A stretch of 64,000 nucleotides of DNA, taken from positions 1 through 64,000 of the forward strand of contig CAJINV010000016.1 of assembly GCA_905178155.1 (NCBI GenBank). The letters run 5' to 3'. The notes below the pieces were generated by a model. It was not told the origin of the DNA and made no database searches. It worked only from the letters and a program-made list of their open reading frames with translations. Numbering within the stretch: position 1 is the stretch's first letter; each line of letters begins with the position of its first letter. Source of the stretch: Amoebophrya sp. A120. Lineage: Eukaryota > Protista > Dinoflagellata. Of this stretch, positions 1,813 to 47,205 are shown one piece after another. The position numbers and the translations under genes are program-made.

Positions 1813-4800
1813 ATGACCGGCGCACCAGAAGATGCAATGGAAAAGATGCTGCCTCAACAACCAGCACCGAGGACGTGGTCCGCCGTGCAAGGACTTGGTG
1901 CTAGTACCAAAAAGCCCAAGAAAAATAATAAAAACCCTCTTTCTGCTCACAACAAGGAAGTACTACGTCAGGCCACGACGACACTGCATGCGGATGCCGC
2001 AACCAGCACGGAAACCCTCTCTGAGACCCTGCCCAGCCTCGCGGTGCAGCGCGAGCAGGCGGAGCAGGAGATGCTGCTGGATTTCCCTTTTGATTTACGG
2101 AGAACGCAGTTAATCGCCAGGTTGTTCGAGCTGGTGCAAGACCACGCGGAAGAGAAGTCCACGGTGGTGCAACAAGATGTCGCGCAACTCTTTCTCTGTA
2201 TTCACAGGAAATAATTTCCCCTGCACGTACAAATGCTATTTCCGCATGACAAAACTTGCCTCCAATCTGAGTCAGCATGACAGGAAGTTGGTTCGGCACA
2301 CTCCAAGTGAAAAATAGCGCAACCTGTCATGCATTTTGCACATGTGCCGCAGGAAATTGGTATGGCATACTCTCCGCCGGGATTCTCGAGGCCAACGTGT
2401 ACTTCTACCAGAGTGAAGAGATTGACCAGGGGTGCGTGATCGGCCCCAGTGTCTCCTTACAGGAAGTCGTGCAGCAGTTTATGAAATGTAAAAATGTCTG
2501 GGTCTGGAAGAATGCACGTTTGTCATGCTTGTCTGGCATGACTCGGGAATCTGTGTTGCATAGGCACGAAAAAGCCTTCTTACCTGTCATGCAAAAACGC
2601 AGTTTGCCATGCGGAATACGTAAGACATGGCAGCCAAAAAATTTGTGATGCATAGCTGTGTATTGCAGTACGTCTATCATTCATTTTTAGCATTACAAGT
2701 TTCCAGACCCAGACATTTTTACATTTGATACAGTTGTTGGTACAGCAGAACGAGAGCAGCAGCTTTCAAGGCCTAGAAAATATCCTGTGCAAAAGTATCG
2801 TATTCGTATAAATGCAAGTCTTGCATTACAAATCTTCTTCTTGAGGCAAATCCGCATTACAAATTTTATTTCTCATGCTGAGGAAATTTGTGATGCATTT
2901 ATACGAGTACGATACTTTTGCAATTCATAGAAAATGGTGGTGGTGAGCAAAATGACCCCCTAGATCACGATCCTTTCGTGTTAGACGACCGCTTATGTAT
3001 CACCCAGGAGCTCTTCGAGTCCTTACTGCAAGAGATGACAAACCTCGAGCTGGCACAATGCGTCGACGCGGTACTGGATCACGCATTGCAAATGGAGACC
3101 AGTTGGGGGATCAGCTGTCCGATCCACAACAGCGGTCATCTTCCAGGTGGTCAACACGGGACCACGACGAGTTCATCGCTGAAGCTAAAAGGTGCAAACG
3201 GGATCGCCCTCTATGAAAACGACCTTTTCCTGGCGGACTCGATGTCGCATGCCATATTTCGCATCAGAAACTGGAGCGGAAATAATAATGGGGGAGCGAG
3301 TTCTTTGGGAAATAACCTGACGAATCGAAATAGCAGTACTGCTGGAGTGACCGGGTTGGCGGGAGGAGGTGGTGTTGGGAACAACAATCTTCCTGGTATT
3401 CTTGCACTTGCTGAATCCACCATCAATGCGGTCCTCATCACGTTGAGAGTTCTTGTTGTAGTCAGAGTCTCTGTACGAGAACGAGTACGACCTGCTGCGC
3501 TTAAAAATCTACTGGTGATGTTGTAGACTGTTGACTACGTCGTACTGCCGCGTTACTTGTTCGTCAAACATAGTTCTTTACTTCATCGATGATCTTTCAG
3601 TAGAAAAATCTCGCCGCTTATGTTTTCCTATTATCCTATCTAAATCAGGCCCCACGTCCTACCAGTTGCACCAGCACGACCACTATCAAGTGTAAAAGTG
3701 TCTGGGTCTGGAAACTTGTAATGCTGGGCGGCGTATCATGAGGAGGCTACAAGTGCTGGCTCAGCATGACAAGTTTCTGAGCTTCTTGGTGTTGCCTATT
3801 CTGCATGACAAACTGCGTTTCTGCATGACAGAAAAATGGGGGTCTTGGGTAATGTGCATGACAAATTTAAGAGTCATGTGAGACAAGCATGACAAACTTG
3901 CATTCTTCCAGACCCAGACATTTTTACAGTTGATAACCACCGGTCGGGCTCTACCACGACCAGCGGGGGCAGCAGCGCGACCGGCAGCATTGTGTATATG
4001 AAATGCAAAAGCATCGTACTAGTAGAAATCGCATGACAAATTCTCTCAGCATGAAAAATGGAATCTGTAATGTGGATTTAGGTAAAGAAGGAAATTTGTA
4101 ATGCATGACAGCGATTACTACGAGTGCGATACTTTTGCACAGCATTGTGTACAACCCGCACCAGCAATACAGCCCGACGAGCGGGGGCGGGGGCGGTTCT
4201 TTCGGCGGGGGCAACAGCACGTCGAACGCGGCGGCCAATAGTTCGTCGTCACCTTCTCGAGGAGGCGGACATCACCAGCAGCACCCTTTTGCCCACCAGA
4301 ATTCTACTACTTCCTCATCCGCAAGCCAGAACCTCGAGCTTTTCGCGGGTAAACTGAAAAACCCGGGTTTCCGGGACGGCCCGAGAGCCCTGGCCCAGTT
4401 CAACGGCCCCTCTGGGCTGTGCATCTGCCGCAGAACCGAGCAGCTTTACGTCGCGGACACGAGGAACGACAGCATCCGCGCGATCGATTTGATCTCCGGC
4501 CTGGTGCAAACCTTGACGGTGCAGTCGGTGGATTTTATTGGCTTGTCCAACCCAGTGGACATTTGCATAGTGTACGGTGACTTCGACTACGAAGACAATG
4601 AGTCCTCCGACAACAACAGTTCTGGAGATGAGGAAAATAACCGGCTGAATGGAAACAACTCCGATGGTGGCAACATACGAGAAGGTACAACCGCTCCCCC
4701 TACTGCTACCGCTCATTTGTCATGCAAAATCCCAATATATGCAGTCGCTCTCGCTGCCTCATAGTCATATCACTACAGTTTGCGTAACAAATTCCGGAAC

Positions 4801-7800
4801 AAGCCGAAACAGTACTACACTGGGCGCACCAAATTTGTCATGCGTAGGCTTTACGCGTGCTGGTGTTTGTATTCGTATTGCTGTACATGCTAAAAAAATG
4901 ATGGGGAGGCGGGGAAGTCCGAGTTGTGCATCTTCATACAAGAATTCTGACGACGAGAACGATAACGCGAACAAACCGAGGCTGGAGCAGATCCAGGAGG
5001 AGGACTCCGCCGAAGTGGAACTGGAAGACGCGTCCGAGCAATTCGCGAACGCTGGGGGGGCTGGCGGGTTATCCGGGTCGATTATGGAAGCGGCTAGCAG
5101 CAGGCGGAGAATGATGTCGGACTTGTACAACATATCAAATGCAAATATGTCTGGATCTGGAAAGGAGGAACTTGTAATGCGTGTCATGCATACCAATACC
5201 TGGAAAATCTGTGTTGCATGAGCAGCAAATGGGCTCCTGCTTCCCTTGTCATGCAAAAACGCAGTTTGTAATGCGTGTTAGGCATTAGTGGCGCTTGCTT
5301 CGGAAGCTTGTCATGCTTCGCTGCCATTGAAAGCGTTGCAATCATGCGCAACTCAGCATGACAGGGTTCCAGACCCAGACATATTTACATTTCGTACAAC
5401 AGGCGGCGGTCCGCGAGGTTCAGCTTAGCGGATGAGTACGGCATTACGCCTATCGTATTTAAAAACGTTCCCAACCCATAGGATAGTCGTAATGCAAATC
5501 TGCATGCTGGAAATGTTTCTCATGCGGAGCCCCATGCGAAGCATTCTCTAGCCACGTTTTGGAATTTGTCATGCTCCAATCAGCATGATATACTAAATCT
5601 GTAATGCTGCTGAGCTAGCTCAAACAGCACGACACTACGACTCCAAATTTGTCATGCGAAACAGCCAAAGCTTGTGGATTTGTCTAGCCGATTCCCCATC
5701 TTGACCATGGGGTGGGGACGTTTTTACGTAGGATAACGCCGAGTGGGAAGTCGTCTGTCCGGACGAGCCGGAGGACCTCCCGGGCGTACACCTCTTATCC
5801 TGTGCAAAAGTATCGTATTCGTAGTAATCCCATTCATGCATTACAAATTTCTTTCTCAAGTTAAATCCGCATTACAAATTTCCTTTCTCATGCTGAGGAA
5901 ATTTGTATTGCAATTCATACTTACTAGTACGATACTTCTCCACAGGATACCTCTGATTCGATGACAACGACGAGAAGAACGTCTCTCAATCTATTAGACC
6001 ACACGAGCGGGAACGTGATCGACAGTCTGCGAGAGTTGTCCGGGGTTATCAAGTGTAAATAGTGTCTGGGTCTGGAAGAGTGCATGTTTGTCATGCTTGT
6101 CTGCCATGACTCTCAAATCTGTCACGCACGTTACCCAAGAGCGCCATTTTTCTGTGATGTAGAAACGCAGTTTGTCATGCAGAATAGGCAACACATAGAA
6201 GAAGCTCAGAAACTTGTCATGCTGAGCGAGCACTTGTGGCCTCCTCACGATACGCCACCCAGCAGCACAAGTTTCCAGACCCAGACGCATTTGCATTTGA
6301 TAGGAGTGGCGAATTCCCAATTCGACAAGCTGCCCGTATGGGATTCTCAATTGTTACATTCTCAACTGTTACAGGAATTTGTCATGCAAAAGCACCATCA
6401 TCATCCTCACGATCAAGCTACTCCGCATGACAAATTTGGCAAGGCCTAAAGCGCGCCTAAATCTGTGCGGAATTCGTAATGCTACAGGTGCAACCTTCCC
6501 CCTTGTACTTTTCCAATTCTTGCATCACAAGTTCATGTAACAGTTCTTGAGAATGTAACAGTTGAGAACGCCATAGCCCGACCTGGCGATTGCTTGCGAC
6601 CACTCGGTTTTTGTGATTAAACGGTCTGGCACTTTGGAAATGTCCTTCGTCGCGGGGAACATTTTATCCAGGAGAAAACACCCATCCCCCCATCCATTGG
6701 TTGCATGACAAACAAAGGAGCTTATTCATGTTTTGCATGACAAATTGGATGGGGATGGGTGTTTTTTTCTGGATGCGTTTCCGAATACGGCTACAAGGAC
6801 GCGGCGAAGGGTTCGGACGCGCGGTTTAGCCAGATCCGGGGAATTTGCTCGATTCGGAATTCTATCAACTGCAACCTTATCGTACTAGTTAATGAATTGC
6901 AATACTTACAAAGTGACTCCGCATTAAGGATATCCGATATTCAAGTTTGTAGTTTGGATTTACCTTAGCAGCGTAGAGTTGAGTTGTAGTGCATAAGTGG
7001 AACTACTACGAGTACGACTACGTCGGTACTTTTGCATTGGATAAGTTCCGTCTTCGTCGCTGACCATTGGAACAACGCGGTCCGGTGTATCTATCCAGTG
7101 AAAATATGTCTGGGTCTGGAAACTTGTGATGCTGGCTTGGGAATGGTGGACACACTGCAATACGCAGCCAAACATGACAAATTCTTAAGCTGCTATGTGT
7201 TCTTGCGAGGTCTGCATGTGCAGGGCAAACTGCGGCTGCGAGTTCTGCATGGCAGACTGGGGTTTTGCACGGGAGGCAAGAGACTCTCATCCTGCTCATG
7301 CATCACAGAGGTAGGAGTCATGAGAGACAAGCATGACAAACTTCTACTCTTCCAGACCCAGCAGATCGATATTTGCAATGCATAGCATCAATTTGAAAAC
7401 CACGGGGGTCGACACGGTCATGGACTTTGAGCCAAACGGGCCGCTTATCTTGAGTAAAAATGTCCTCATACCAGAGTTGTCATGCAAATGCGCAATGAGA
7501 GCAACATTTGTAATGCGCGTCTCCATGAAAGGCACTTCCACTCGTGTTTTGGACTTTGTAATGCTGTAGGCAGGATGGGAGGCTGGATTTCTCATCCGGC
7601 TTCCCTTGCTAACCAGCACTACACTGCAGATGGAAGCTTTTCATGCGCAGCGCCCAAAACTTGGAGATTTGTGTTGCTGATTTACCAACTTGACTATGGG
7701 GTGGGGACGTTTTTACACAGAATACCGCTGAAACTGACAGCCTCCGACTCTGGGTATTTGTACGTTCTGGACTCCGACACAATTCACATGTGCAACATTT

Positions 7801-10800
7801 TGAAAATCTGTTCGGTGCAGCGGGAAAATCTGAGCACGTCCGGAGTTATCCACAGTAAATTTCCCGTACACGTGCAAATGCGGTCTCTGCATGGCAAGAC
7901 TTGGCTTCGATCCTAGTTTAATAGCATGACAAGTTTCACACTCCAAATTGGGGAAATTTGTGATGCATCTTGTACATGTACGGGAATGGGAAATTTGTAT
8001 TGCATAGGAGTGAATGGAAGCTCACTGGGCACCTTGTCGTTCCAGAACTTGCAGAAGCAAACGCTTTCTGGCATCGGAAATCATGCTGCTGGTGCAAGCA
8101 ATACAAGAAGCAGCATCGGTGGAGCTGCCGGTGGTCCTGTGCCGCCGACAACTGGAGCTGTATCTACTGCATCGCCCGCCGTCGGTGGTGGTGTGAGCAA
8201 GGGCACTTTGCTGGGGGGAAAGAGTCCCATTCTCTCCGCTAGGAAGCTTTCCTTCACACCGAACCTGAACACGAAGACCGAGAATAACGAGAACACCTCC
8301 TCCGCCAGCAGCTCTAGCGGCGGTGCAGAGACGACCAGTGCTGACAGCAACCAACTTAACGTCAACAGGAACCAACCCCGGTCCGGGTCCTTCTTAGACG
8401 CGAATTGGCGCACTGTATGATGATTTGCAAATATGTCTGGGTCTGGAAGATCCTAAACTTGTGATGCTGTCTCTGGATTCTAAACAAAATTGTGTAGCAT
8501 GACCAGCAAGATGAGGGCTCCAGTTTGATGTCCTACGCGGAGAGGGCATTTCTCATGCGGTAGAGGCATCGCATAGCCGTCTGAAAATCTGTGATGCTAG
8601 GACATGCATCACAGACATCATGGGTCATGCAAAATGTGCATGTTGACAAACCTGGCAATCTTCCAGACACAGACATATTTGTAGTTGACACACTGCCACG
8701 GATCACAAGAGTTTTCAGGATATGCTGTGCCAAAGTATCGTACTCGTAGTAATCGCAGTCATGCATTACAAATTTTTTTGTCAATGTAACTCCGCATTAC
8801 AAATTTCATTTCTCATGCTGAGGGAATTTGTCATGCATTTATACGAGTACGATACTTTTGCAATTCATACAGGAAGAACGGAAACGAAAGCTGTCCGCGG
8901 CTGCAGTGGAGTTCAATTTTGCCGCGGCGGCCGCGGGCACCATGGTAGCAGGTGGTGGACGAGGAGTTCCTCTTGGTGCGTCAACTTCTTCTACGGGAAA
9001 AATATATGCTGGTACTTCGACTTCCTTTCCCACCCCATGCACAGTGCCCAAAGTCGTCGTATCGGTACTACCCGCAGGATCAGCAGCTGCATCTACTTTC
9101 CATGCCGGAGCGACCGGCGCAGGAGCAGGTTCACAAACTGCGCCCCACGGCGCAGCTGTGGTTGGTTTCTCACTGGACGACGATGATGACGATGATGAAG
9201 AAGACAGCGAGACGGAAAACGATTCGCGTTCGGAATCCGCGGTAAGCTCCAGAACATCCAAGACAACCTCCACTACAAACAAGAACAACCAAGGAATAAA
9301 TGGTAATGGAAATGAAAGCTCGACGTCCACCTCCAAGGTCGTCGTGGATACCGATACCAAGAACAATCCACCGAATGGAGCGGTCGTTTCGATTGTGCAA
9401 GTGCAGGTGCCCGGGTCACCGGTGAAAAGCAAGAGTCATTTATCGGCGTCGGCGGAAGTAGGCTCAGCTGGCTCATCTAGTACGGGCAAAAGCGCCAGCT
9501 GCAATGGTCCTCTACTACAGGACGTCGCAGGAGATCAGCATAGTCCTCGCGATGCATCTTCATCAAAGACTGTTCAAAATAACCTGAACCTCCTTCAACC
9601 TGTCAACTCCTCCGCGTCCAATGCCTCCAGTTCCCGCCGTGGCAGTTTTTCCGATCCTTCGATTCTCAACGCCCCGAACCTCCCCGGTTTCAACCCAAAC
9701 AACTTGACCAATATGAACTGCAAAAGTATCGTACTCGTATAAATGCATTACAAATCTTCTCAGCATGAGAAATAAAATTTGCAATGCGGATTTGACTTAG
9801 CGAAAAGATTTGTAATGCTTGATTGGAATACGAGTACGATACTTTTGCACAGGATAACCAACCACGGGGACCAAAACGCGAATTTGCTCATGATGCCAAA
9901 TCATCAAATGTAAAAATGTCTGGGTCTGGAAGAATGCAACTTGTAATGCGTATTTCAGAACACAGAAAAGTCTCTCATGCATACGTAGCAAAAGCTGCCC
10001 ACTTTCTGTCAGCAAAGTAGGGGACTTGTCATGCGGATTCGGCATTGCGGAAGCTTCTCGAAACCTGTGATGCTAGAGCTTCCATGCCAGACCTTCTGTG
10101 TCATGCAAAAACAGCATGACTCTTCCAGACCCAGACATTTTTACATTTGATACAAATTCGAACAACAGCTCACAACTTTTGGGCGGCGCAAATACCGCCG
10201 GAACGACTTTGCTAAACAACTCAGCGGCGAATTCCAACATCACAAAACGCGGGTCGTCCGCCCCCGTGGTTCCAGTTGCGTTGCGATCACTCGTCCCCGG
10301 CGCCAGTCTCCATCTATGACAGTGCACAACTCGTCCCCCTCCCCCTCATTTGTCATGCAAAATACCCAATCCGCCCTTTGCCTCTTGGCACTGTTTGCAT
10401 GACAAGTTCTGGTAGCCCAAATAGCACTACAATTTGTCATGCAAAAATCGGCACTCTTGCTGATGCTTGTATTGCTGTTCATGCTATACAAATGAGGGGG
10501 AGGGGGAGTTGTGCGCTGTCATAACATCCTGCTTTGTTGCAAATGTCCACGGCCCGAGAACCGGTCAAGGAGGGCTGTATGCATTGCAAAACCAAAAGTA
10601 TCGTACTCGTATAAATGCACTACAAATTTTCTCAGCATGAGAAATAGAATTTGTAATGCAGGTTTATCCTAAGAAAAGGACTTGTAATGCATGACTGCAA
10701 TTACTACGAGTACGATACTTTTGCACAGGATAGGCTTTTCCGGATCGCAATTCCGTGTCTCCGTTGCGTCTTCGGTTTCCGACGGGGACAACGAGGGCGA

Positions 10801-14988: not shown

Positions 14989-16181
14989 CGTAGGGGATAG
15001 CGACTTTGACAAAAACTCTTCATCGCGTATGTGATACTAGGATTAGGAAATGGAACTAAAACAAAGTAAAACAAGTTTTGTTAAAAAATAAAAAAAATTA
15101 GATTGCCTGAAAAATAAGGGCTACTTACAAGTACAACTGCACGAGAAATATGGTATTTATAGATGGAGCCGATAAAGATGAAGTTTTTAAATTTGAATCC
15201 GTGGCAGTACTTAGCATGATTCTTGCCTGCATTTGCTGCTTGAAAAAAGTAGTCTAGGTGGTTATGCTCGTGCTGCTAGCGCCTGGTAATTTTACGTCGT
15301 CGTGTACATCAAGTAAAAACGATGAAAAGAGTGAGAAGATGTTGAATTCAAGTGAAAGTAGAACTGATAGATGAAGAAAATGAAGTTCTTTTGTCAACAC
15401 CCTCCCTCGTAGTGAACATCAAGCTCAAGGGCGTGGTGCAGACTGAGTGACTTCCATCTCAAGTTGAAGATGCCGCTTAAGTAGTGTGTTCCTCATCTTC
15501 TAGCAACTATGGATCATAGTGATCGCCAAGAAGAACGAATGCGGCTCAACTTCGCCGCCAAGACGCGGACTTTCTTACGTTCGTGTTTGAGACAGATAAC
15601 GCTAAAAAACATACCACTGCCAAAGAATGATCCAAAAAAGTGTTCCGCTTCGGGTCGTCGCAGCATCGCTACAAATATCGCCAAGAACTTCGGTCTACTT
15701 GAATTTCGGTCTCATAGTCGGCGGGGGTAGGGTCGTCGTTCCGGGTTACAACTGTGTTGTGTTGATCAATCGCGGCACACTATAAATAATCCTGCACCTC
15801 CAAAATAAGTACTCGCGCGACTCATGTGGGATAGTAGCTGGGGATACAGTTACAACAGGGACCTACTCGTGATGTTGAAGCATCATCCTCCTGTTTCAGA
15901 AGAACATACAGCTGAGAATTATCTGGCTCTTGCTTTTAGTTCATCTTGTTGTATGTACGTTCGCAGAAGACCACTACAACCGCACTTGTTGCAAAACTAC
16001 CTCTGCTACCATCCTTAGGATTTTTAGATTGTTTGTCGGGAAGATTCAGCAATGTTTGGGTCAATGACCAAAAATGGTAATCCATCTTCAAAGCCAGACC
16101 CTTTGATGTTCGCGTTTTTTTGAACTTGAGACTTGTACGAACAAGCAGTGGGGTAGTAGTAAAAACACCATCCTGACAAGA

Positions 16182-27637: not shown

Positions 27638-27645
27638 GGCAGGAA

Positions 27646-27864
27646 TATCGCAAGAAAAAAGTGTTACAGTTACACATTGTGTTGCAGGCCAAGCAAGACA
27701 GACAAGCTCTGTCATGCAGGATATGCATAGGAGCCTGCCTCCTCTCATAGGTGTTTTCCCTATAGGATTTCTGCATTGCAAGTTTTCTCTCTCATGCCGA
27801 GAAATTCGTGTTGCTGAATATACTACAAATGTGTAACTGTATGTAACACTTTTTTCGTGGGATA
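27646..27864. mobile_element. Introner, family H-like, in presumed 3' UTR
   Basis: Direct repeat aggaa/aggaa; inverted repeat gaaaaaagtgttaca/tgtaacacttttttc. Confidence 0.85.
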
Positions 27865-35200: not shown

Positions 35201-38200
35201 AAATAAATAATAAACCGTCAACTACGACGAGTACGATTCCGGTGCCGAACGACACACCCACAACAACTTCCTCCTCTTCTACGCACCCGACACCGCACGT
35301 TCACGGGACGTCGGAAGCAAATCCAAACTCGCTTTCAGACAGCAAGATCACCATCGGGACGCCAACAGATAGTACTTCTCTCCAGGACAACGACCTCAAC
35401 CTCGACAAGATTTCCGGCTCAACGCTTGCGCCCGCGACACACAACAAGGTCGCCCCCTCTCCGTCGGAAATGTCGGTCTCTTCCGTTCCGACAGACGCGG
35501 GCTCCGAAGCAAACAAGGCACTCTATGGCGTTCTCAAACGTTGCATTCTTAGCTGTTGCATGAATTTGTGATGCAAAATTATAATAAGCCTCCACAAAAT
35601 GAAGGTGCTTCGCATGACAAATTCCCGAAGGGCTAAACAGCACCTACATCGGTGCGCCGGAACTTGTAATGCTAGAAGTGTAACTGCCCCCCTTTGACTT
35701 TTATATTCTTGCATTGCAAATTTATCTGACGGTTGAGCATGCAACAGTTGAGAGTCCCATACACTCCGGGCGGAAATGGAGGAATTTGAGCGGAAGAAAG
35801 CGGAATATGAGCGGAAAAAGCAACAGGATATGGAAGTGTCAAGATCGAAATCGACAAAATCGAAAAATTTGTAATGCAAGGAATGTTGTAGGGCACGCAT
35901 GGCCTGTGTAGGGGAGCACGCAAATGAGACCGATTGCAAGCCTGCTTAGGGAAAGACGATGTGCTGCCGGAGCAGCATGACAGGAGCAGTATTCTTTGCC
36001 CAAAAAGCATGACAGACTGGATTTTGGTGCTCCCGAAATTTGTCATGCGCCACTTGGAAACTGAGGCGCCATCTGGTATGATTTTATGCATCACAAATAG
36101 TTTCGATTTTGTTGATTTCGATCCTCACGCCTCCATACAGGATATGGAGGAACTAGAAAAGATGAAACGGGAAAAGGAGGAAATGGAAAAGTGGAAACGG
36201 GAAATGGAGGAAATGGAAAAGTGGAAGCGGGTATCAAATGCAAATATGTCTGGGTCTGGACGGGTCCCAGGTCGAAACTGTATTGCGTGTCTCGCATTCC
36301 TAAAAGATCTGTATTGCAAAAGCAGCAAACAAAGCGCCGCACTTTCGTCATGCAAAAACGCAGTTCGTATTGCGTCCTGCGCATGACAAAGCGTTTGAAA
36401 AATTTGTCATGCTGCGCTGCAGTTAAAGGCACAGTCAATCATGACCATTCAGCATTACAAGTTTCCAGACCCAGACACATTTGCAATCCATAGCGGGAAA
36501 GAGAGGAAATGGAGAAGTGGAAACAAGAAACGGAACAATTGAAGCGCGAAAACGCGAAGCTGAAAGAAGAAAGGAGATACAGCGACGCGACCAATAACAA
36601 CAGCAAGAGCAGCAGCTCAAATTCGAACAGCGCAATAAATGGAGGGTCGTCGGCCCTGCAGACGCCGCGAGATAATCTTTCCACCAGCACCACAGCCTCA
36701 ACTACAACTGCCCGTCGCCACACGATGGGGTTGGGTCTGCCGAAGTTGGATTTCTCGAAACTAGCGAGCAGAAATGGGGCGGGGACGACGTCGAATAATA
36801 ACTCGACCAGCAGAGCTGCAATGAGTGGGCTGAGTCTACCGAACGGAAATTCTACTTCTTCCGCCCTCTCTGCGAGTCTCGGCGGGTCGACGTCATCAAG
36901 TAGAGCAGGAGGGGATAGTACAACGGGTACTAGAGGCGGCACAGGTGGACAAGAAGATTGCAGTAATTCGACAAGAGGAGGACAAAATGGCTCGACGTCA
37001 GCAGGAGCAGGAGGTGCGCCAGCAGCGATGAATAGCACACAACAAAATGGAGCAACTTCCTCGTCTTCATCCTCCTCAACAGGGAACACATCTTCCGCTG
37101 CCGACCAGCCTCTGCTCGCTCCCCGCGAACGGCGCAACAACACGGAAAATCTGATGAAGAGCTTCTACGGCAAGAAGGACCAAGTGCTGAAAAAAAGAAA
37201 CTTCTACGCCTTTCAGCGATCGTTGCTGGAAGAACAAGCGTGCGGGGCGGAAGAAGATTTCAGTATGCCGATGACAGCCAGGGGAGGACGGACAGGAGGT
37301 AGTGAAATAAGGAGTTGTGGACTGATTGATGTGGAGGTTCATTTCGGTGTATACAACGTCGACGAGTAATGCTAATGTTCTTGCTGTGCTCCTTTGAGTT
37401 GTTCTTGTGATCTAATACTTTGGTTCTTGTTCGTTGATTTTCTCCTCGGATCACGTGGCCCCCTAGCAGCAGATGCCAGTATTGCTACTGTGCGACTAAA
37501 GTAGCGATCATGGCTTTCTGCGCAGTACTAGAGAAAGCCATACATCACTGATTCTAGTTCTACTTCTTCGTCTTCAAAACCCACATGAATAAGGAGTAAC
37601 CTTATCAGGTCCCCTCGCCTCCGACCTTCTGCAAACCGGCGGCCCAGGATCTCGCTGCCCCACTCCGTATTACAAGCAAAAGTGTTAACGTTAACGGTTT
37701 TCACAGATTACAGTCATGCATCACAAATGTAGCCCAATATGCATGCTACGCATTACAAATTTTGGCATGTTTTGTGATGCCCTGCTGCATCACAAATTCC
37801 GTTAACACTTTTTGGTGTGATACTCCGCGGCAGCACAGCATCCACCGAAAAGAAAACCGGTACGATACGCCGTCGAAGCAGAGGATTGATTCCGAGTCTT
37901 TTTATGCATTGCAAATATGTCTGGGTCTGGAAACTTGTGATGCAAATCTACGAATTGTGGGCGCACTGCAATATCCAGCCCAGCATGACAAGTTTTTGCG
38001 CTGCTGTGTGTTTCGTTTTGCGCGTGACAATCTGCGTTTTTGCATGATAGGCAATCGGCCCGCCTTTTCCTGCTCATGCATCACGACAGATCTAAAAGTC
38101 ATGCCAGACAGGCATGACAAACTTGCATTCTTCCAGACCCAGACATTTTTGCACTTGATACTTTTCTCAACACACCGATGATGTCCGCGAGGGGCGGGAG

Positions 38201-38234
38201 GAGGAACAGTTTGACCACAAGAAACCCGAGGTAG
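29255..38234 (+). CDS. Myosin heavy chain (N-terminal SH3-like region, motor domain, charged tail); 12 introners and 7 GT-AG introns
   Basis: ISGESGAGKTE P-loop, NGNSSRFGKY switch I, GILDIYGFE switch II, NSFEQVCINLANERLQQFF, HYAGEVTY, HYIRCFKPN. 3' end tentative. Confidence 0.93.
30089..30241. mobile_element. Introner, family B (diverged)
   Basis: Direct repeat tgtga/tgtga; removal restores myosin LAVNPY. Confidence 0.9.
31392..31697. mobile_element. Introner, family C
   Basis: Direct repeat gtgca/gtgca. Confidence 0.88.
32181..32442. mobile_element. Introner, family A
   Basis: Direct repeat tcgag/tcgag. Confidence 0.92.
32504..32809. mobile_element. Introner, family F (TIR core tgtcaggatcgaaatc-acaaaatcgaaa)
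   Basis: Direct repeat gacca/gacca. Confidence 0.92.
33661..33916. mobile_element. Introner, family D
   Basis: TIR tatgagagtgcacaac/gttgtgcactctcata; degenerate direct repeat tttat/cttag. Confidence 0.88.
33974..34154. mobile_element. Introner, family B (diverged)
   Basis: Direct repeat tcccg/ccccg. Confidence 0.82.
34798..35028. mobile_element. Introner, family G
   Basis: Direct repeat tcccg/tcccg. Confidence 0.9.
35524..35761. mobile_element. Introner, family G (ends reversed relative to 6337)
   Basis: Direct repeat cactc/cactc. Confidence 0.88.
35829..36137. mobile_element. Introner, family F (opposite orientation to 32504)
   Basis: Direct repeat cagga/cagga. Confidence 0.92.
36232..36492. 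mobile_element. Introner, family A
   Basis: Direct repeat gcggg/gcggg. Confidence 0.9.
37668..37822. mobile_element. Introner, family L (TIR aaaagtgttaacg/cgttaacactttt)
   Basis: Direct repeat ctccg/ctccg. Confidence 0.85.
37903..38160. mobile_element. Introner, family A
   Basis: Direct repeat ctttt/ctttt. Confidence 0.9.
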
Positions 38235-40934
38235 CGGGTCGTGCCGACCGCAGTTCGCGGTATCTCGACGGTTGTAGTTTAAACTACAGGGTGAGACTGG
38301 AATAGGAAATGGTCGAACAAACGATTTTTGGAACACTTTTTCAATTCTGATCTGATTCAGCGGCAAGGCGCGCACTCGAGATTATGAATTCAAAGCGTCT
38401 TCTACTACACTTCTTTATCCTCTGGGTGGTATTGAGTTGATCTAAAGTTGCTGTACGCACAGACAGTTTTACGTTGCAATTTCAATTTTGCTTGGAGTAG
38501 AAAGTTTACACATTTTCGACGGTGAACTCAGGATCTATCCATTTCTTCAAATTTCCATGTGGAAACGTACAAAATGCATGCACATCACATGAAAGCTAGA
38601 GGGGAGCTCACTCAAATTCATTGGGGCTACGCGCAGTTTTGGTGCGACTTTCTTTCATCGTGGTTTTCATACAATCAATATCAACGAAAAGATTTTCAAC
38701 GAAAAGATTTTCAACGAAAAGACATAGTTGCAGTTCTTTTCTGCACAACATCAAAGTCAATTACTTGTTGACGTCAAAAATATGAAGCCGCAGAAGCTGA
38801 TCCAGAAGGAATGGTAAATTGTTTGCGGATGAACGTCTAGGTCTATCCGGTCCGAGCAGCCGGTGCTCCTCGTTGTGTGTTTTCTTCTAATGTCGTAGTG
38901 CTGTCCTGTTTGGACGAGGTGGAGGAGAACGAGGAGACGCAGTTTCGACGTATTTCTTCTCTGGGTCCATATATTTGAGTGCCGTCTACTCTGAGTGCCC
39001 AGCTGAGAGCGTGGCAAATGTTTTGAATTGGTTCAGGTCTAGCAGTTTCGACGCCGCACCAGGGCGCCGCACCTGCTCCAGCATGCGCGGCCCTCGGACG
39101 TTGTCGCTTCCGGGAGAGTTCCGAATCAATCCGGGGCCTAAAGCGGCAGCAGGGACCGCATCAGAAGGAGTGTGCCCCCGCGATAAGACAAACAACGAGC
39201 CGGAGCCCGAAGCAGAACCCGAGCCCATCGGTAAGCGCCCGGAGGTGGGCTGCTCCCTCGGGGTTCGGCAGCTCCTTGGTTTTAGTTTTCCGTCCAGGCC
39301 GCGCGTTGCCGTTGTATTGGCCTCCTGCCCGGCTGATTTTGGGCGCCTCCCTTAGTTCGTGCGCGCCCGTGGGCCGCCCCGAAGACGCCGACGGAGGGGC
39401 CGCCGCCCAAGCCCGGGGAGGCATGCCGGGAATGCAGGGAGGCCGGCGGGCCTGGTCCGGCAGGCTGGCAGGGGGCTGAGGGCCGGCTTTTGGGCCTACC
39501 GACCTTGCTGGGCTTCGTTCTGGGCTTTTAGGCTGGGGCGGGCCGCCCCGTCTTTTGCTTCCGCGCGCCGCATGGAAGCCGGGAAAGGCGGAGAAGGCCG
39601 CCCAGGCGGCGGCTGCTGCTGCCCCTGCGAAGGCTGGTAAAAAAGCGACCGCGGCCGACCGCGCATGCTCCTCGGCAAACTTTTCGCCGGCGAGTCTCAA
39701 CGCGGCGCCTGGGCGGCCGCATCAGATCCATCGGCCTGCGCTCTCAGCAGTCAGTCACATCATGGTGGAGCGGGCGCGCGACAAAGACCAGAGGGCGCCG
39801 AAAGTGCGGGCGTGCGATTCGAGAGCGACTCTGGCACACGAAGAGCCCCAAGGCTTCGCCGCCCGGAAATGTGGCGCCGCGCGCGGCCGGGGCCGGTCTC
39901 AGTCAGTAGTCTCGCGCCGGCCCGCCCGCCCGACGCCCGGCTGGATCGGTCGGTGGCCCAGCGTGTCACATTCCTTGCCAGCCCCCGGCCGTGGCCCCCG
40001 ATATTGTTTGGCTGGGCGGCTCGTAGATAGGCGAGATCGGCTCCGGATCTTGTCCTTCGTCGCACGCGCGCCGCGCGCAAAGCCGGCGCGCAGCCCGGGC
40101 TCGTTTTGATGTGTTGCCGCGCGCGTTCGGGTTTGCACGCCGCGCCGAGGATTTGGGTCTGGGCCGTTCGGTGTCTCTCTGCAAGTGTTGCCTGGCAGAA
40201 GATGTGAAAGCGCATACTAGCCACTACCATATTTGCGGCAATCGACACAAATAATATATAAATCTGAAAGTGTGTTGAGGTTGTAAAGCCCGAAAGCAGG
40301 AGTTGAGTCGACTCGAAATCAAAGCAGTTCCTAACTTCATACAAGGAGAACGAGACTTCAGACCGTGCTAGTAGTATTCGACAAGACTGTCCGGCTACGT
40401 GATGATCTTCCTCCATCTTCAACCTTCTAGTAGTATTTTGAGCTGCAGCTCCACCTCTACTTGTTCATATAGGATTACCAAACAAGAGATATGATAGCGA
40501 TACTAGAAGGTCAAGATGAAACTAAGGATCAACAGATTGAATTCTTTGTGCTCTGGCTCCTGCATAGTGCTCCTCTTGGTCCAGAAAAAAACTAACCCCT
40601 CCAAGAACTACCCATGGCTCGCCCTCAGATTGCCACTGAATTCGAATCTTCCGCCGGATCGTTGCCCTTAATAGTAGTTGTAGTTCGAGCTTGTTACAAA
40701 TGGAAATGTGAAAATGACTTTTTATTCCGTGCGCTCATTGTCTTTGTCACCCTCACCTCCAGTAATTAGAATATCATGATGTACTAGAGTACATATTAGT
40801 TACCACCTTTATTGCCCAACTCTAATTTTTCCCAGCACGGAATTTCTAGAAGTTGTCACCTTGTCAGCTACAACAAACCTCGTCCCCTGAACCACATCAA
40901 GTATATTATCGATCCTTTTCTGAAAAGCACAAAA

Positions 40935-43900
40935 ATGTCCGGCCTCACGGACGACGTGGAGATGGGAACGGCAGAGGAGCAAGCGGAGGAGGTTGTCATG
41001 CAAGACAGCAACTACAACAGTCCAGACTCCGACATGACCCACCTTTTAGACGACCCGGAAGATCAACATGAACAACAAGAAGTCGACGACATCGCAGCAG
41101 ACGCGTTAATGAGGGACGACGACGCGGGCCGCCCTGAGCAGGCATCGTCCTCCTCGTCATCGGGGAAGAGAGTTGATGGAAAGGGACCGACACCAATGTC
41201 AACATTATCAACAGGTGCAGCCGACGAGGACGAGTCCAAAGACCTCGACATGCAGTTGCTTCTGGAGGGAATGAGGAAGAAGGGTCAACAGCAGGGCAAG
41301 CAAGACCTGTTCGATCTGAAAGGCACAACTGGTAAAGGAACAAGTAAGAGTAAAGCAGACGCGATACTAGCAAAGGGAAAGAAGATGATGCTGCTCGACA
41401 AAATGAAAGGCGGCAAGGGAAACAAACGACCGGCACAACCACCATCGCCAGATGAGCTTCTTGATACACACGACAGTAATATTCGTGGTCCTGTAATAGA
41501 TGCGCTAAAGTCTTCGCCGGATCTGCAACCACCGGTGGACGGGAATGTGAAGGAAGGGCAACACGACATGCCACCACCAAAGAACAAAACGCAAAGTAAG
41601 AGCGAAGATTATAGCCAAAGCAAGAAGGCAAAAGTCAGTCCCTCAAACAACAACATATCCGCGTCGTCCAAAAATAAGAAGGGCCCTACAAGTACAACCC
41701 CGGCGGTTTTAGATTTGTTTCAGGACCTGCAAGACCTGAAGGGGAACAACAAGAATTCCAAGGACAATCCTCAGGACAGCGGGGACGATATGAAATGCAA
41801 AAGCATCGTACTAGTATAAATTGCAATACAAATTGGCTCAGCATTACAAATTGAATTTGTAATGCGGATTTGCCTTCACAAAAAAATCTGTGATGCATAA
41901 AAGCAATTAGTACGAGTACGATACTTTTGCACAGGATAGACGAAATTCCTCCGGAGCTGTTGCCGAAATTGGAGAAGTATGAACTGCAAAAGCATCGTAC
42001 TCGTATAGATGCATTACAAACTTCCTCAGCATGAGAAATAAAATCTGTAATGCTGATTTGCCTTGGAAGCAAGATTTGTGATGCAAGACTTGCATTTATA
42101 CGAGTGCGATACTTTTGCACAGGATAGGAAGAGGTACGGGGTTCCGGGCAAGAAGATTGTCTCCATGGTGGAGGGGGACGACAAAAACGAGAAATTGGTC
42201 ATGTTCAACGACTTTAGCCTGGGCGACGTAATATCAAATGCAAAAATGTCTGGGTCTGGAAGAATGCAAGTTTGTCATGCTTGTCTCACATGACTCGCGA
42301 AACTGTCATGCACATTACCCAAGCGCCCCGTTTTTCTGTCATGCAGAAACGCAGTTTGTCTTGCAGAATAGGGAACACCTAGAAGCTCAGAAACTTGTCA
42401 TGCTGAGCCAGCACTTGCGGCCTCCTCATGATACGCCACCCAGCATCACAAGTTTCCAGACACAGACACTTTTACACTTGATACGTAATCGACTTCGACG
42501 ATTTGGACGGCACGAAGCCAAAGAAATTGACGCTGTCGGAACTCCTGCTTGCGGAGGTGAAGCAACGATACGTGCAGAACGCCCTGCGGGTCATCAACGA
42601 CGAGGAGTTTGACGCGATCGTATGAAAGTGCACAACTCCACCTGCTGCTCCCCCTCACTTGTATTGCATGAACAGCATTACAAGCGCCAGCCAGAATACC
42701 GGTTTCGCATGACAAATTGGGACAGGAGAATAGCGCTATTTTTTGGGCTGCCAGAACTTGTCATGCAAACAGTGCCAAGAGCCAAGGCGTAAGCTAGGCA
42801 ATTTGCATGACAAACAAGGTCCACGCGTGGGGACAGGGTCCCCACGCTGGGGCCTTGTGCTCGTCCCTAGTGGCGCTAGTGGGGGAAGGGTGTTCGGCAT
42901 CGGGGCGGACAGCGTCCGCCCCTCGCCTCACACCAGGCGCGCGCGTAGTGGCTTAGTGCGCGAAACGCTAGTGGGGGAAGGGTGTTCGGCATCGGGGCGG
43001 ACAGCGTCCGCCCCTCGCCTCACACCAGGCGCGCGCGTATTGGCTCAGTGCACGAAGCGCTAGTCGTGGAAAAAGGGCGAATTAGGCGCCCTGCATTTTG
43101 CAAGAAAAAACAAAAATAGAAGCAGAGTAGATATCTCTGTGTGGCTGCTGCAAAAAAGTTCTCTAACATTGAAGCGCAACGCCTTCCGATTCCACAGAGC
43201 AAAGTAAGCAGCTGTCTCCTGGCCGTGCATTGCAGAGATAGCCGCTTTTTTATTTTTGCATGGCAACGCAAAGACTTCTTTGTTTATGGAGGCAGGTTGT
43301 GTTGCAGCTTTAATCTTTTTCATTTTGTGCGTCGCATTTTTTTTTGGCGCTTTTAATTTATTTTTCATTTTCCCGTCGGCATTTGGCGTGGAAAATAAAT
43401 AAATATTTGCGTCCAGGCGCTGGTCTCGCCTTTGCTTTATCCTCTCGCCCCGCCTGTCGCGGCCACCTGTCCGGGTCACCTGTCAAGGTCACCTGTCAAG
43501 GTCACCTGTCAAGGTCACCTGTCAGGGTCGCCTGTCAAGGTCACCTGTCAAGGTCACCTGTCAAGGTCACCTGTCAAGGTCACCTGTCAAGGTCACCTGT
43601 CAGGGTCGCCTGTCAAGGTCACCTGTCAAGGTCACCTGTCGAGGTCACCTGTCGAGGTCACCTGTCGAGGTCACCTGTCATGGTCACCTGTCACGGTCAC
43701 CTGTCAAGGTCACCTGTCGCCGGGGGGTAGGCGGGACCAGATCCCGGAAGTCAAGCAATGTAAATATTAATGAGGGAGCAGGGCGAGTTGTGCACTTTCA
43801 TAGATCGATGCTGACAACCAGAACCTGCGCATTCTCTTCGTGGGCAGCGGCAACATGGGGTGGGAAGCGGACCTGTCGCTCAAAGTCGCGCACTTTCACT

Positions 43901-46900
43901 ACGAATTCGCGGACCAATTGAAGAAGTTGACCCAGGTGCCGGATTTGCTTAGCGAGACAGCGAAGGAAAAATTGCTGAGCAACTTCGACAAAAACGGCAA
44001 GGCGAAAAACGAACTGAACAACATCAGCCTGGTATGCAAAAGAAAAACTGTGTAAGTGTAAATTTGTGTTGCAGAACATGCAACAGAGTTGCGCCTGTCA
44101 TGTCAGACAGCCATGAACAAGTCCTCTTTTCATGTGTGTTTTCCCTTACAAGCCACGCGTAACAGGTTTTCTCTGTCATGTAGAGCAAATTTGTGATGCT
44201 GTTTCTCAAAGAAACAAGGCACACTTACACACTTTTTCTCCTGGATACCTGCACTGCATCGACGTGACCGTGCTGGAGCCGAGTTTCCGCGGCAACGGGT
44301 CCGAGGACTTATGGGAGTGTCAGGATCGAAATTGACAAAATCGAAAAATTTGTAATGCATAAAATGTAGGGTACATATGGCCTGTATTGGGGAGCAGGCA
44401 AATGAGACCGATTGCAAGCCTGTTTAGGGAAGGCGATGCGCTGCCGGAGTAGCATGACAGGAGCAGTCTTCTTTTCCGAAACAGCATGACAGGCTGGATT
44501 TTGTTGCTCCCGAAATTTGTCATGCACCACTTGGAAACTAGGCTCCAACTGGTATCCATTTTATGCATCACAAATTATTTCGATTTTGTTGATTTCGATC
44601 CTGACACATCCATAGGACTTTGAGGTGAAGTACCAGGGCGAGGACGGGGTGCTCTGGAAGTCGATTATCGAGGCGTGCGGGCAGTTATCCTGTGCAAAAG
44701 TATCGTATTCGTATTGCAATCATGCATTACAAATCTTTTATAAGTAATCAAATCCGCATTACAAATTTTATTTCTCATGCTGAGGGAATAATTTGTAATG
44801 CATTTAAATACGAGTGCGATACTTTTGCAATGCATAGCAGTGCGTCCGGTTCACGGTGGACGCGGAATTTCTGACCGGGTCCCTCCACTTGGCCCGGGAG
44901 CGCGGCTCCGGGGGGACGGCAAAGAGGAGAACGCTGTTTGAGCAATTCGCCACGCGTTTTCGCATATCAAGTGTAAAAATGTCTGGGTCTGGAAGAATGC
45001 GCGACTTGTCATGCAGCTTTTCCATGACCCATGAGGTCTGGAATGCAGGGCCTAGCGTGACAGATTCTGTGCGATCTTTCTGATGCCTATCCTGCATGAG
45101 AAACTGCCTCCCGACTTGGTCAAAACTGGACGACTTTTGGTAAGCATGCAACACAGATTTTTGGATGCTTCAGATTTAGCATGACAAGTTGCATTCTTCC
45201 AGACCCAGAGGACACTTTTACACTTGATACCGCAGGGAGGACTATGATTTGGATGCGGATGAGAGCAGCCCGATGGAGACCGACGGGCAAGAGGGGAACG
45301 AAGACGAGGACAGTGGTATCAAAAGGAAAAATCCCCCCTCCCCATATCAATAACGTATCCGTCTGAAAATTTGTGATGCAGATTTGTGGCCACAAATCCT
45401 GCCTGTCTTGCAGGAAGGCAAATTGAGAGAGGGCGCCGCGCCATGCAGGCGGTTTCTCATGCTGTAAGGCCTACAGGGCAGACGTCTGCCATGCTAAACG
45501 CCTACACGACCAGAAGGCCCCCGTCTAGGTTTGCGATCTGCGTGCAGTCCTCTACTGCAAGACAGATCTGATTTGTGTATACAAATCCCGCATCGCAGAT
45601 TTCCGTTTTGATATGGGGAGGGGGAATTTATTTTCCGTTCGATAAGCGTGGACGCAGACGAAAGAGAGGAGAAGCGGCGGGAAGAAATCGAAAAAGAAAA
45701 GCGGAAAGTGTTTCATTCCATGATGAACCTCCCGGAAGAGGCACAGAACATCTATGACTACGTGATTTGGAATAATCCTTTCCCGACCATCACGAGGGAC
45801 GACGTGAAGAAGGCCAAAGATATGAACAATTCCGCGACGAAGTGGCTGTTCGCTTTGTATCCTGAGTAAAAACGTCCTCACCCCATAGTCAAGATGGTAA
45901 ATCTGCAAGGCAAATCTACAAGCTTAGGCCGTTGCGCATGACAAGTTCGGCCTCGTACTGTGCTCCTGTTTAGGTAGTTCGTCAGCATCACAGATCTAGC
46001 ATAGCATGATGATTCTAGCATAACAAATTCCAAAACACGAAGAGAAATTGTTTCTCATAGGACTCCGCATGAGAAACATTTTGAGCATGCGTCTTTGCAT
46101 GACAACTCTGGAGTGGGGACGTTTTTACAAATGATAAGCTGCTGCCCAAGTTCATCGCGTCGACCAAGAACGTGCTGAAGGCCACCGGAAAATGCTGCAT
46201 CACGGTGACCCCGTCGCAAGCTTTGGGCAAGATGCCGGAGAAGGACGCCAACGGGCGAATCGTGAAATGGACCTCAACCTGGAGCCTGAAGCAAGCCGCT
46301 GCGGAGAATTCCTTTCCGAACAGTGAAGAGCTAGGCTTCGACACCCGGCATGGCATGCATTTCTACAAAGCGTCGTATGGGGATTTTCGCTCTCTCAGCC
46401 AAATTGTGTCGGAAAAGGTACTATGTATGATATTTGAATCCCGGTCCCATTCTAAAAATATAGATAATTTATGTAAGTCGCTAGTCTGCTAAACAACAGA
46501 AGTTGAGCTACCTAATCAGATGAGCGATGAACAAGTAGAGGATGTATCATCTTCATGGTTCTTGCTTTTCTTTCGCTTTCCCACAACGTCACAACATCGG
46601 AAAGACAATAAATCCCCGACCCAAAAAATTGCACAGGACAAACAAGTAAAGGCCGGCGCCTCGTACATTGAGACCGCCGAAGGGCACTCCCGCGTGATCA
46701 GCTACATGTTCTTCAACGCGATGAAGAACAAGAAAGCTCAGAAGGACGCGACGCTGCGAAAGAATATGCCAAAGTGGCGAGGTTTCGATGAGGCGACCCA
46801 GCTGCAACTGCCGGAAAACTACAGGAATAGCATTTCGAAAATAAAACTACCCTCATCCACGACCGCCACCGACAGTGCTTCATCTCCTACAGCTGCTGCT

Positions 46901-47200: not shown

Positions 47201-47205
47201 TAGAT

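Follow-up and report, generated by a model that had tools for sequence, protein, structure and literature searches.

Introner Elements of Amoebophrya sp. A120 Are Missing from Probable RNA in Both Orientations, Likely Because Their Inverted Ends Read Alike Either Way and Mark the Cut

Genes and Inserted Elements

The window analyzed in this report is a stretch of 64,000 nucleotides (contig CAJINV010000016.1, positions 1 to 64,000, of assembly GCA_905178155.1). The source is Amoebophrya sp. A120; exons in the window match the published A120 proteins P0001 and P0092 at 100%. The genes on the + strand are interrupted by 64 elements with TAT...ATA inverted ends and a 5-base flanking repeat (Table 1). 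The list of elements was curated by eye and then refined with a score that favors TAT/ATA ends and repeat matches, and thus the perfect 5-base repeats (45 of 64) and perfect ends (56 of 64) are partly selected for.

A protein search with the NHL-repeat gene returned 150 other NHL proteins, its own protein not being among them. The 336-aa frame at 23138 may be SNARE-like, judging from a reading of its sequence; a Pfam search with one of its exons gave no hit. For the gene around position 55741, the strand was judged from one exon in a + frame, which has a match to a paralog, and the protein search returned this paralog at 42% only and not the gene's own protein. The original prediction placed every host gene on the + strand. 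This was demonstrated for five of the seven element-bearing genes, and not for the gene at 16182 (elements 16913 and 17644) or the one at 55741, where the + exon is the sole indication.

The elements were compared by BLAST after removal of 25 terminal bases from each element end, with a family cut-off of 55 bits. Nine families take in 50 of the 64 elements, and seven of the nine contain both orientations, these signs being relative and valid within one family only. No orientation conflicts were found among the 115 pairwise matches. The same family had been predicted to lie in both orientations, and each of the pairs named was recovered as a minus-strand match, with every element starting where it had been placed: 2781/9712 (88% over 82 nt, E = 5e-26), 3684/6047 (89% over 205 nt, E = 1e-75), 32504/35829 (88% over 260 nt, E = 9e-91), and 32504/44310 (89% over 257 nt, E = 5e-94).

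The base counts of the left and right element ends agree, and TAT/ATA is nearly invariant. The terminal pattern consists of TAT, seven freer bases, and an A run, and its mirror image forms the 3' end; the flanking repeat has little base bias. The constant target duplication and the inverted ends fit a non-autonomous TIR transposon (MITE). The elements are the published introner elements of Amoebophrya A120 (Farhat et al. 2021, PMC7789003).

Table 1. Host genes, element families, and individual elements in the window (families are given by element start; orientations are relative within a family)
Feature	Position	Strand or orientation	Remarks
NHL-repeat protein gene, ~2080 aa	1813..14988	+	31 elements and one unresolved GT-AG intron
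336-aa frame, start approximate	23138..24700	+	2 elements
155-aa gene model	25623..27637	+	4 elements, 2 GT-AG introns; model only
Myosin gene, 1540 aa	29255..38234	+	12 elements, 7 GT-AG introns; Pfam, P0001
906-aa gene	40935..47200	+	10 elements, one GT-AG intron; equals published P0092
All 64 elements	2199..56075	not fixed	curated list
Family A	2480, 5133, 6047, 27289, 36232, 42232	reference	opposite: 3684, 7092, 23320, 37903
Family A2	8416, 9902, 26968, 32181	reference	opposite: 44965
Family B	2781, 5796, 8721, 10838, 12960, 44686	reference	opposite: 3997, 9712, 10578, 41789, 41978
Element joining family B at 45 bits	12745		below the 55-bit cut-off
Family C	5451, 7446, 24249, 25991, 31392	reference	opposite: 45858
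Family D	10315	reference	opposite: 14380, 17644, 42621
Family E	6337, 14068, 34798, 35524	single
Family F	26313, 32504	reference	opposite: 35829, 44310
Family G	11123, 13273, 45317	single
Family H	13644	reference	opposite: 44033, 47206
Outside all families	2199, 4676, 6665, 6863, 7847, 14804, 16913, 27646, 30089, 33661, 33974, 37668, 55741
Family B element	2781..2929	+	retention shrinks frame from 2082 to 188 aa
Family A element	3684..3935	- (opposite to 6047)	stops in all three frames
Family A element	6047..6302	+	retention truncates frame
Family B element	9712..9856	-	X3 record 3 ends at 9706, just ahead of the repeat, with 410 letters left
Family B element, removed in probable RNA	10578..10732	-	joint 10572>10733 in X3, X5, X6
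Family B element, removed in probable RNA	10838..10993	+	joint 10832>10994 in X5, X6
Family H element, TAC left end	13644..13863	+	spliced and retained forms both in X6
Family D element, 3-of-5 repeat	14380..14606	-	joint 14376>14609, 2 ambiguous letters, 4/4 runs
Element past modeled stop codon (27635)	27646..27864	.	X3 and X6 pieces start at 27865, mid-record
Family F element in myosin motor domain	32504..32809	+	contig distance 177 = model
Family F element, same myosin transcript	35829..36137	-	contig distance 152 = model in X3, X6
Family D element, enlarged by nested ~0.95 kb insert	42621..43802	-	still removed
Family F element	44310..44614	-	missing from P0092, a published protein identical to the model
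Family C element, 2/5 repeat bases matching	45858..46136	-	still removed at length + 5

Removal of the Elements and Position of the Cut

The runs X3–X6 represent one sample whose contigs carry no strand information; their RNA status was guessed, none of the runs recorded as RNA having been found to contain this sequence, and they are referred to here as probable RNA. X1 is the sole probable-DNA run compared, its life stage not being stated. X9, raw RNA under the same species label, matches only look-alikes of the elements, mostly at 90–95%, and is thus from another strain and silent on these junctions.

Removal of an element together with one repeat copy was supported, in agreement with the original prediction, for both orientations of all seven two-way families, using probable-RNA contigs or published proteins (P0001 and P0092 may derive from the same reads as X3–X6). 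Among the joints listed (15 of 23), all 15 were found in probable-RNA contigs to skip exactly the element length + 5. Four contig distances (177, 512, 152, and 132) equal those of the model, and one contig lacks every element that it crosses, over four intervals. P0001 and its A25 ortholog P0002 align ungapped over the site of element 32504. For elements 2781, 3684, and 6047, which have no joint among the 15 of 23 listed, removal was judged from the reading frame; the exon bins 1700–2150, 3053–3503, and 3955–4405 have no contig cover. The frame test for 3684 is weakened by a nearby upstream GT-AG intron whose position is not settled. Of 55 tests in which a single element was retained, 52 gave a shorter frame. 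Long frames are also kept when 2 or 8 extra bases are removed, and thus the frame determines the removed length only up to multiples of 3; the extra length of 5 is fixed by the contigs.

A single register fits all 12 informative junctions, with the cut after repeat base 2–4, which is 1–3 bases ahead of UAU and 2–4 bases past AUA. The joint at element 14380 restricts the cut to the positions that follow repeat bases 2, 3, and 4, and the model reproduces P0092 when the cut is set after any of bases 1–4 and departs from it for 0 and 5. The register could not be pinned further because the proteins of the NHL and 55741 genes themselves were not found. Elements 4676, 6047, 45317, 45858, and 55741 have repeat copies that are unlike at base 3 or 4 and would be informative in this respect. 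Repeats with only 2–3 of 5 matches are still removed exactly. The element at 13644 was observed in X6 as a spliced joint with a depth of 21.5 and in a retained record (record 21, 13614–13893) with a depth of 8.1. Element 27646 is apparently skipped despite lying 3' of the modeled stop.

A GT-AG pair was found in none of the 64 elements in six registers, although this depletion relative to chance is not significant (2.4 expected, P = 0.075). A G[TCA]-AG pair is possible in some register for 7 of the 64. Neither cut shows a fixed dinucleotide across the elements. Seven of the eight listed GT-AG donors of the window start with GTA; a cut after base 4 would start every element with N-U-A and would resemble these donors. 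A motif scan of the 64 elements returned no branch-like motif at a steady position. For the internal motif GCAT[GTC]ACA[AG], 19 of the 64 elements have no sense-strand copy, and in the remainder it lies 31–145 bases from the end, except for one case at 993.

Terminal Stem and Possible Mechanisms of Removal

A stem joining the two ends was predicted for 59 of 63 elements folded in the sense direction and for 56 of 63 in the antisense direction, with no difference between the two. The end mismatches show no RNA-strand bias (83 G-U versus 88 A-C, p = 0.76). The left and right ends of the same element match better than within-family shuffles at bases 8–14 (310 versus 299 ± 3.6, p = 0.001), and at bases 4–7 they match no better than the shuffles (106 versus 108). 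Such matching of the ends would be equally expected from the needs of a transposase or from subfamily structure. The original prediction that recognition relies on a symmetric feature is supported in that the stem is predicted on either strand, but the support does not extend to the exclusion of strand-specific signals. An element with inverted ends, whichever way it lies, contributes the same 5' and 3' termini to the transcript, and introners that use ordinary splice sites in either orientation are described for Polarella and Aureococcus.

We propose that the elements are removed from the pre-mRNA, that the inverted ends set the cuts, and that an altered spliceosome is the most likely catalyst. 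We assign this explanation as a whole a probability of about 0.5. That removal is directed by the ends and takes place at the RNA level is considered highly probable, and a little over half of that confidence extends to the spliceosome as the catalyst. In the proposed sequence of events, insertion in either orientation left the 5-base target repeat around the TAT...ATA ends, and the transcript presents the same terminal sequence either way (UAU, seven freer bases, and an A run, mirrored at the 3' end). The ends are predicted to pair from about base 8 inward, with bases 4–7 often unpaired and UAU/AUA closing the foot of the stem. Exactly the element + 5 is lost, with the exons joined after repeat base 2, 3, or 4, as found in the probable-RNA contigs and published proteins. 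The cuts would be measured from the ends, rather than read off splice dinucleotides or the identity of the repeat. In the least certain step, a spliceosome of U2, U4, U5, and U6 would catalyze the reaction, and a stem-binding factor would replace U1. Most spliceosomal proteins and U2, U4, U5, and U6 are kept in A120, and U1 was undetected (PMC7789003). These retained parts were counted for the spliceosome, as were the GTA donors set beside the N-U-A start and the MITE-derived noncanonical introns of Fritillaria, which are described as spliceosomal (PMC11282704). Counted against the main explanation were the stem without strand bias, the absence of a fixed dinucleotide and of a steady branch motif, and a register that is not pinned to base 4.

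Removal from RNA could also proceed independently of the spliceosome, as has been proposed for euglenids. In such a second pathway in A120, a nuclease would bind the terminal stem, measure from the UAU/AUA foot, and make its cuts at fixed offsets within both copies of the 5-base repeat, after which the exons would be joined by a ligase. We regard this as a tentative alternative with less than even odds. It would account for the symmetry of the ends, the unconstrained dinucleotides at the two cuts, the lack of a steady branch motif, cuts staggered about the foot of the predicted stem, and the undetected U1. According to PMC11282704 and PMC12501133, euglenid introns with paired inverted ends exit as circles and not as lariats, and other machinery is argued for. 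No such enzyme is named in the literature cited, however, and A120 has a spliceosome that is already altered; the stem also lacks strand bias. It is improbable that a spliceosome reads the terminal sequence alone (UAU.../...AUA with the A and U runs) and that the stem is a transposon by-product. TAT/ATA is nearly invariant while bases 4–7 do not covary, G-U mismatches equal A-C, and the sole retained form (13644, one case) has a TAC end. Bases 8–20 nevertheless covary, and the bases at the 3' cut, 2–4 past AUA, are arbitrary, a position that a stem would define simply.

Paramecium-type IESs are transposon-derived exon inserts that binucleate cells remove precisely from their somatic DNA, leaving one copy of the flanking repeat, a TA. 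The A120 elements share the transposon-derived insertion in exons, the precise removal, and the one repeat copy that is kept, but they stay in probable DNA and are also seen in probable RNA, and the sequence that they leave behind is a 5-mer that varies. An IES-like excision had been left open by the original prediction, with the elements cut from the chromosome in the transcribing stage and one repeat copy left behind. The double-stranded symmetry typical of transposons and the absence of RNA-strand bias would suit it, microhomology repair combined with trimming of the ends would be compatible with the kept repeat bases as well, and rare empty sites could hide in the single run X1, where the joints are dominated by other copies (15 of 1780 listed). 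Contigs of X1, however, carry 30089, 31392, 33661, 33974, and 35524 whole, without differences and at a depth of 44–50, like unique DNA. X6, with zero depth on the intergenic bins 39162–40349, holds the retained form of 13644 beside the spliced one. Amoebophrya is not known to have a separate germline nucleus, and excision from DNA would therefore purge the elements in one cycle. We consider excision from DNA very unlikely. Hardly more credible is that the introns are false, produced by a reverse transcriptase that skips hairpins between direct repeats, with the elements staying in the mRNA or being bypassed in translation. A hairpin with a short direct repeat is a known recipe for this artifact (PMC8240250 and PMC4176328), and cDNA is the source of all of the RNA evidence. 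The frame truncation on retention includes the conserved myosin motor, however; where a joint shares only two letters, the skip is still exactly length + 5, as found in 4 of 4 runs; and one contig lacks every element crossed over its four intervals. A cryptic GT-AG pair private to each orientation has a negligible probability. G[TCA]-AG could be read in one register or another from 7 of the 64, but GT-AG from none, and the 15 listed joints (of 23) leave no room for internal sites, which refutes it there.

Relation to Known Introns and Significance

The introner elements and a hairpin model of A120 were published by Farhat et al. 2021 (PMC7789003), who reported about 30,000 such introns and found no transposase-coding element in A120. 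The elements described here agree with that work in the inverted repeat that starts from TAT and continues with seven freer bases and an A run, and in direct repeats across the exon/intron borders, noncanonical ends, repeated families, and co-oriented genes. They differ in that every repeat measures 5 nt and the 12 informative junctions agree with a single register, whereas repeats of 3–5 nt and variable splice positions were described previously. In the main text of PMC7789003 the word "orientation" occurs four times, always for gene order, and "strand" never; the text of the supplement is alike (figures not covered).

According to bioRxiv 2020.10.14.339549, Polarella glacialis and Aureococcus anophagefferens have introners that are DNA transposons with target duplications and that form introns in either orientation, as in A120. 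Those introners carry one ordinary splice site and obtain the other from the duplication, whereas the A120 elements have no GT-AG register. Because the A120 elements and both-orientation introners of other algae have already been published, the main observation is not new. The nonconventional introns of euglenids (PMC11282704 and PMC12501133) resemble the A120 elements in their MITE-like origin, in borders that are free, in the direct repeats that flank the junctions, and in inverted ends, which pair in euglenids and are predicted to pair in A120; in Euglena the paired ends are required for intron removal. The euglenid end motif is CAG/CTG rather than TAT/ATA, the lineages are unrelated, and the excised euglenid RNA was shown to be circular, whereas the A120 elements are known from contigs and proteins alone. 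The introns of Fritillaria are likewise MITE-derived and noncanonical with an adapted host machinery, but they keep the preferred borders AG-AC and AG-AT, and the A120 elements have none (PMC11282704).

A literature search that covered few subscription journals, and neither figures nor bioRxiv supplements, returned nothing on the orientation or branch points of Amoebophrya introners. An orientation count for A120, the constant 5-base repeat, the cut after base 2–4, and removal with a 2/5 repeat match were not found in print.

Elements in both directions are missing from probable RNA, likely because their inverted ends read alike either way and mark the cut. The question that remains is how A120, with U1 snRNA undetected, removes about 30,000 introns without splice dinucleotides (PMC7789003). 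This question has now been narrowed: the orientation is irrelevant, the identity of the repeat hardly matters, and the cuts lie at short distances outside UAU and AUA. If the second pathway were true, tens of thousands of A120 introns would be removed without a spliceosome, convergent with euglenids, and any TAT...ATA transposon insertion would immediately be silent, whatever its orientation or site.

Elements, Families, and Host Genes

Short repeats are dense over the window's first 47.6 kb, and the elements make up about a third of that stretch. The curated set contains 64 elements, all of 111–386 bases apart from a single one of 1182. Their inverted ends are of the form TAT...ATA, and a direct repeat of 5 bases flanks them. 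The flanking repeats are perfect in 45 elements and both ends are intact in 56, counts that are partly selected because the curation score favored TAT/ATA ends and repeat matches. Two exons are 100% identical to the published Amoebophrya sp. A120 proteins P0001 (myosin) and P0092 (from the 906-aa gene at 40935–47200). In the available text of Farhat et al. 2021 (PMC7789003), 29,850 introner elements are reported for A120, with an inverted repeat starting TAT, seven freer bases, and then an A run. Direct repeats span their borders, a hairpin model was proposed, and U1 snRNA was undetected. The 64 elements are these published introners, and the system as such is already known.

The original prediction placed all host genes on the + strand and members of one family in both orientations. 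The second observation was confirmed, and the first holds for the five modeled genes of the seven that carry elements. With the terminal 25 bases removed, opposite-strand matches were obtained between elements (numbered by start position) 2781 and 9712 (E 5e-26), 3684 and 6047 (1e-75), 32504 and 35829 (9e-91), and 32504 and 44310 (5e-94). Nine families were formed from 50 of the 64 elements; seven occur in both orientations, with no orientation conflict in 115 matches. The modeled frames are all on the + strand. Removal of each element with one repeat copy, and of 7 GT-AG introns, gave a 1540-aa myosin model, and three exons of this gene match Pfam Myosin_head. The same removal rule for elements gave an NHL-repeat frame of ~2080 aa, a 906-aa protein identical to P0092, and two further frames of 336 and 155 aa. 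In 52 of 55 tests (10/12, 2/2, 30/31, and 10/10), a shorter frame resulted when a single element was left in place.

P0001 (1213 aa) parts from the myosin model at residue 1178, where it changes frame and terminates early (35829–36492). The 1540-aa reading is favored by the lengths of the probable-RNA contigs X3 and X6 and by C-terminal matches of P0002, the ortholog from strain A25, and the early end probably reflects an annotation error where the exon is repetitive. Elsewhere, a + strand gene at 16182–17950 carries elements 16913 and 17644 and probably another, decayed, near 16700–16900. A GC-rich 661-aa frame at 19661–21646, with a weak UDP-glycosyltransferase match, is free of elements and has element-laden neighbors. 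The tail at 58000–64000 is repeat-rich, with 13-base tandem arrays near 61549–61691 and an assembly gap (Ns) at ~62338–62437.

Removal in Both Orientations

Contigs X3–X6 come from one sample, are unstranded, and were classed as RNA by a tool's guess. Intergenic depth was zero in X3 and X6 versus 52–57 in X1, which fits RNA for the former and DNA for the latter. At the joints, where a contig skips window sequence, the skip was exactly the element length + 5 in all 15 listed of 23. These joints include family B elements of one orientation (10838, 12960) and of the reverse orientation (10578, 12745), and the opposed 10578 and 10838 were both skipped in X5 and in X6. Element 27646, downstream of a modeled stop codon, was apparently also skipped. 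On the myosin gene, the piece distances in X3 record 11 (177, 512, 152, and 132) and in X6 (152 and 132) equal those of the model, and the matching intervals include F 32504 and, in reverse orientation, F 35829. None of the 10 elements in the corresponding gene is present in P0092; the reversed F 44310 is among those missing, and so is the 1182-base 42621, which is thus removed as well. The annotation behind the published proteins is, in the source text available, transcript-based, and P0001 and P0092 may derive from the same reads as X3–X6.

With all evidence pooled, each of the seven two-way families has evidence of removal in both orientations. The predicted orientation-independent removal is supported at the family level; for the cited elements 2781, 3684, and 6047 it is supported by the reading frame, with no joint among the 15 listed of 23. 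Removal of 9712 is supported by a contig piece that ends just before its repeat.

Three elements show individual features. Nested within element 42621–43802 (family D) is an insert of ~0.95 kb, in which a 13-base tandem array occupies 43401–43777; the element is still removed in P0092. Element 13644–13863, the sole fully retained one among the probable-RNA rows listed, has TAC, not TAT, at its left end. X3 record 3 runs 164 letters beyond the 10572 joint, with no 10832 joint among those listed for X3, and by length arithmetic it may continue into unspliced 10838 (10838–10993).

Cut Position and Terminal Stem

A GT-AG pair for each orientation, the case that the original prediction set against itself, was sought in all 64 elements at each of six registers (positions of the cut within the repeat). 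No element offers one, versus 2.4 expected by chance, a shortfall that is not significant (P 0.075). G[TCA]-AG is possible in 7 of the 64. Nineteen repeats are imperfect; 12 are informative on the cut, and the other seven were not seen or silent.

Repeat copy kept at the 12 informative elements
Element start	Copies differ at	Copy kept	Basis
6665	base 1 or 2	left	contigs
6863	base 1 or 2	left	contigs
10315	base 1 or 2	left	contigs
10578	base 5	right	
14380	base 1 or 2; base 5	left; right	contigs (left)
14804	base 1 or 2	left	contigs
33661	base 1 or 2; base 5	left; right	contigs (left)
33974	base 1 or 2	left	P0001 and P0092
41978	base 1 or 2	left	P0001 and P0092
44033	base 5	right	
45317	base 5	right	
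45858	base 1 or 2	left	P0001 and P0092

The left copy was kept in 9/9 cases and the right copy in 5/5. A single register, after repeat base 2, 3, or 4, fits all 12, so the cut is not at the inverted-repeat tips. This pattern alone equally fits RNA cutting, microhomology repair, or template switching; the latter two trim mismatched ends likewise. Element 14380, whose repeat matches at 3/5 positions and whose joint has two ambiguous letters, was removed at exactly length + 5 in 4/4 runs. Element 45858, with 2/5 matching, was likewise removed at exactly length + 5, and the two cases suggest a ruler set by the element ends. At 33969–33973 the change in the left copy reaches the protein, with Ser in P0001 versus Pro in the A25 ortholog.

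Over 20 positions, base counts of left ends equal those of reverse-complemented right ends within a few copies, and the transcript thus carries the same terminal sequence in either orientation. Folding predicted end-to-end pairing at bases 8–20 in 59/63 sense and 56/63 antisense cases, and weaker pairing at bases 4–7. For 51 elements, own ends matched better than within-family shuffles at bases 8–14 (p 0.001) and 8–20 (p 0.004) and no better at 4–7 (p 0.69), 4–10 (p 0.24), or 15–25 (p 0.14). Subfamily structure or transposase needs could explain this signal. Mismatches between ends gave no sign of RNA-strand selection on the stem (83 G-U vs 88 A-C).

An internal motif occurs 181 times in elements versus 10 outside and lies on both strands in 40 of the 64. 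It is a poor branch-point candidate because its distance to the 3' end is not fixed and 19 of the 64 sense strands are without it. The GT-AG intron at 33101–33265 holds two copies, and others lie at 25726, 26797, and 17509. Decay of elements may have given rise to some of the ordinary introns. In X9, raw RNA reads from another strain, 249 reads of a look-alike of 26313–26620 carry adapter-like sequence just before position 26504, presumably a template-switch adapter, and 377 exit through the right end. Either the 5' end of an RNA or a stop of reverse transcriptase would then lie ~115 bases inside an element; this is a single locus, and the reads could be PCR copies.

Mechanism of Removal

We put the probability that the elements are removed from RNA under the direction of their inverted ends at about 0.9. 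Excision from DNA in the manner of ciliate IESs, the alternative left open originally, is very improbable. X1 contains 30089, 31392, 33661, 33974, and 35524 whole, with no differences and at depth 44–50, and extends 44 bases into the reversed F 35829. The assembly may itself have been built from X1, whose life stage is unspecified, and rare forms are lost in contigs (15 of 1780 X1 joints are listed). A 280-base X6 contig holds 13644 with both flanks at depth 8.1 (its spliced joint, 21.5), so this element is present in the probable RNA of the locus. The junction retains a variable 5-mer rather than TA, and Amoebophrya is not known to have a germline nucleus of its own.

The proposed reliance on a symmetric feature is partly supported: both orientations are removed and the ends are symmetric, but orientation independence is no bar to a spliceosome. 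In the available text of bioRxiv 2020.10.14.339549, introner classes of Polarella glacialis yield introns in either orientation with ordinary splice sites, and either-orientation introners are also reported for Aureococcus; such splicing is therefore compatible with a spliceosome. An introner survey pipeline provides for opposite-orientation insertions (PMC9860276, accessible portion). The accessible part of PMC12130899 places A120 introners in several transposon classes and does not mention their orientation, and a term search of PMC13326754 returned nothing relevant. The Amoebophrya orientation result, the constant 5-base repeat, and the cut register were not found in print in a search that covered the text of mainly open-access papers.

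The closest working analogue is the nonconventional introns of euglenids, which, in the portions available of PMC11282704 and PMC12501133, have paired inverted ends and free borders and are excised as circles, not lariats. This likeness fits a separate nuclease and ligase acting without a spliceosome, a tentative reading that we rank lower. We prefer, at roughly even odds, a putative altered spliceosome that would be guided by the terminal stem in removing the elements of A120.
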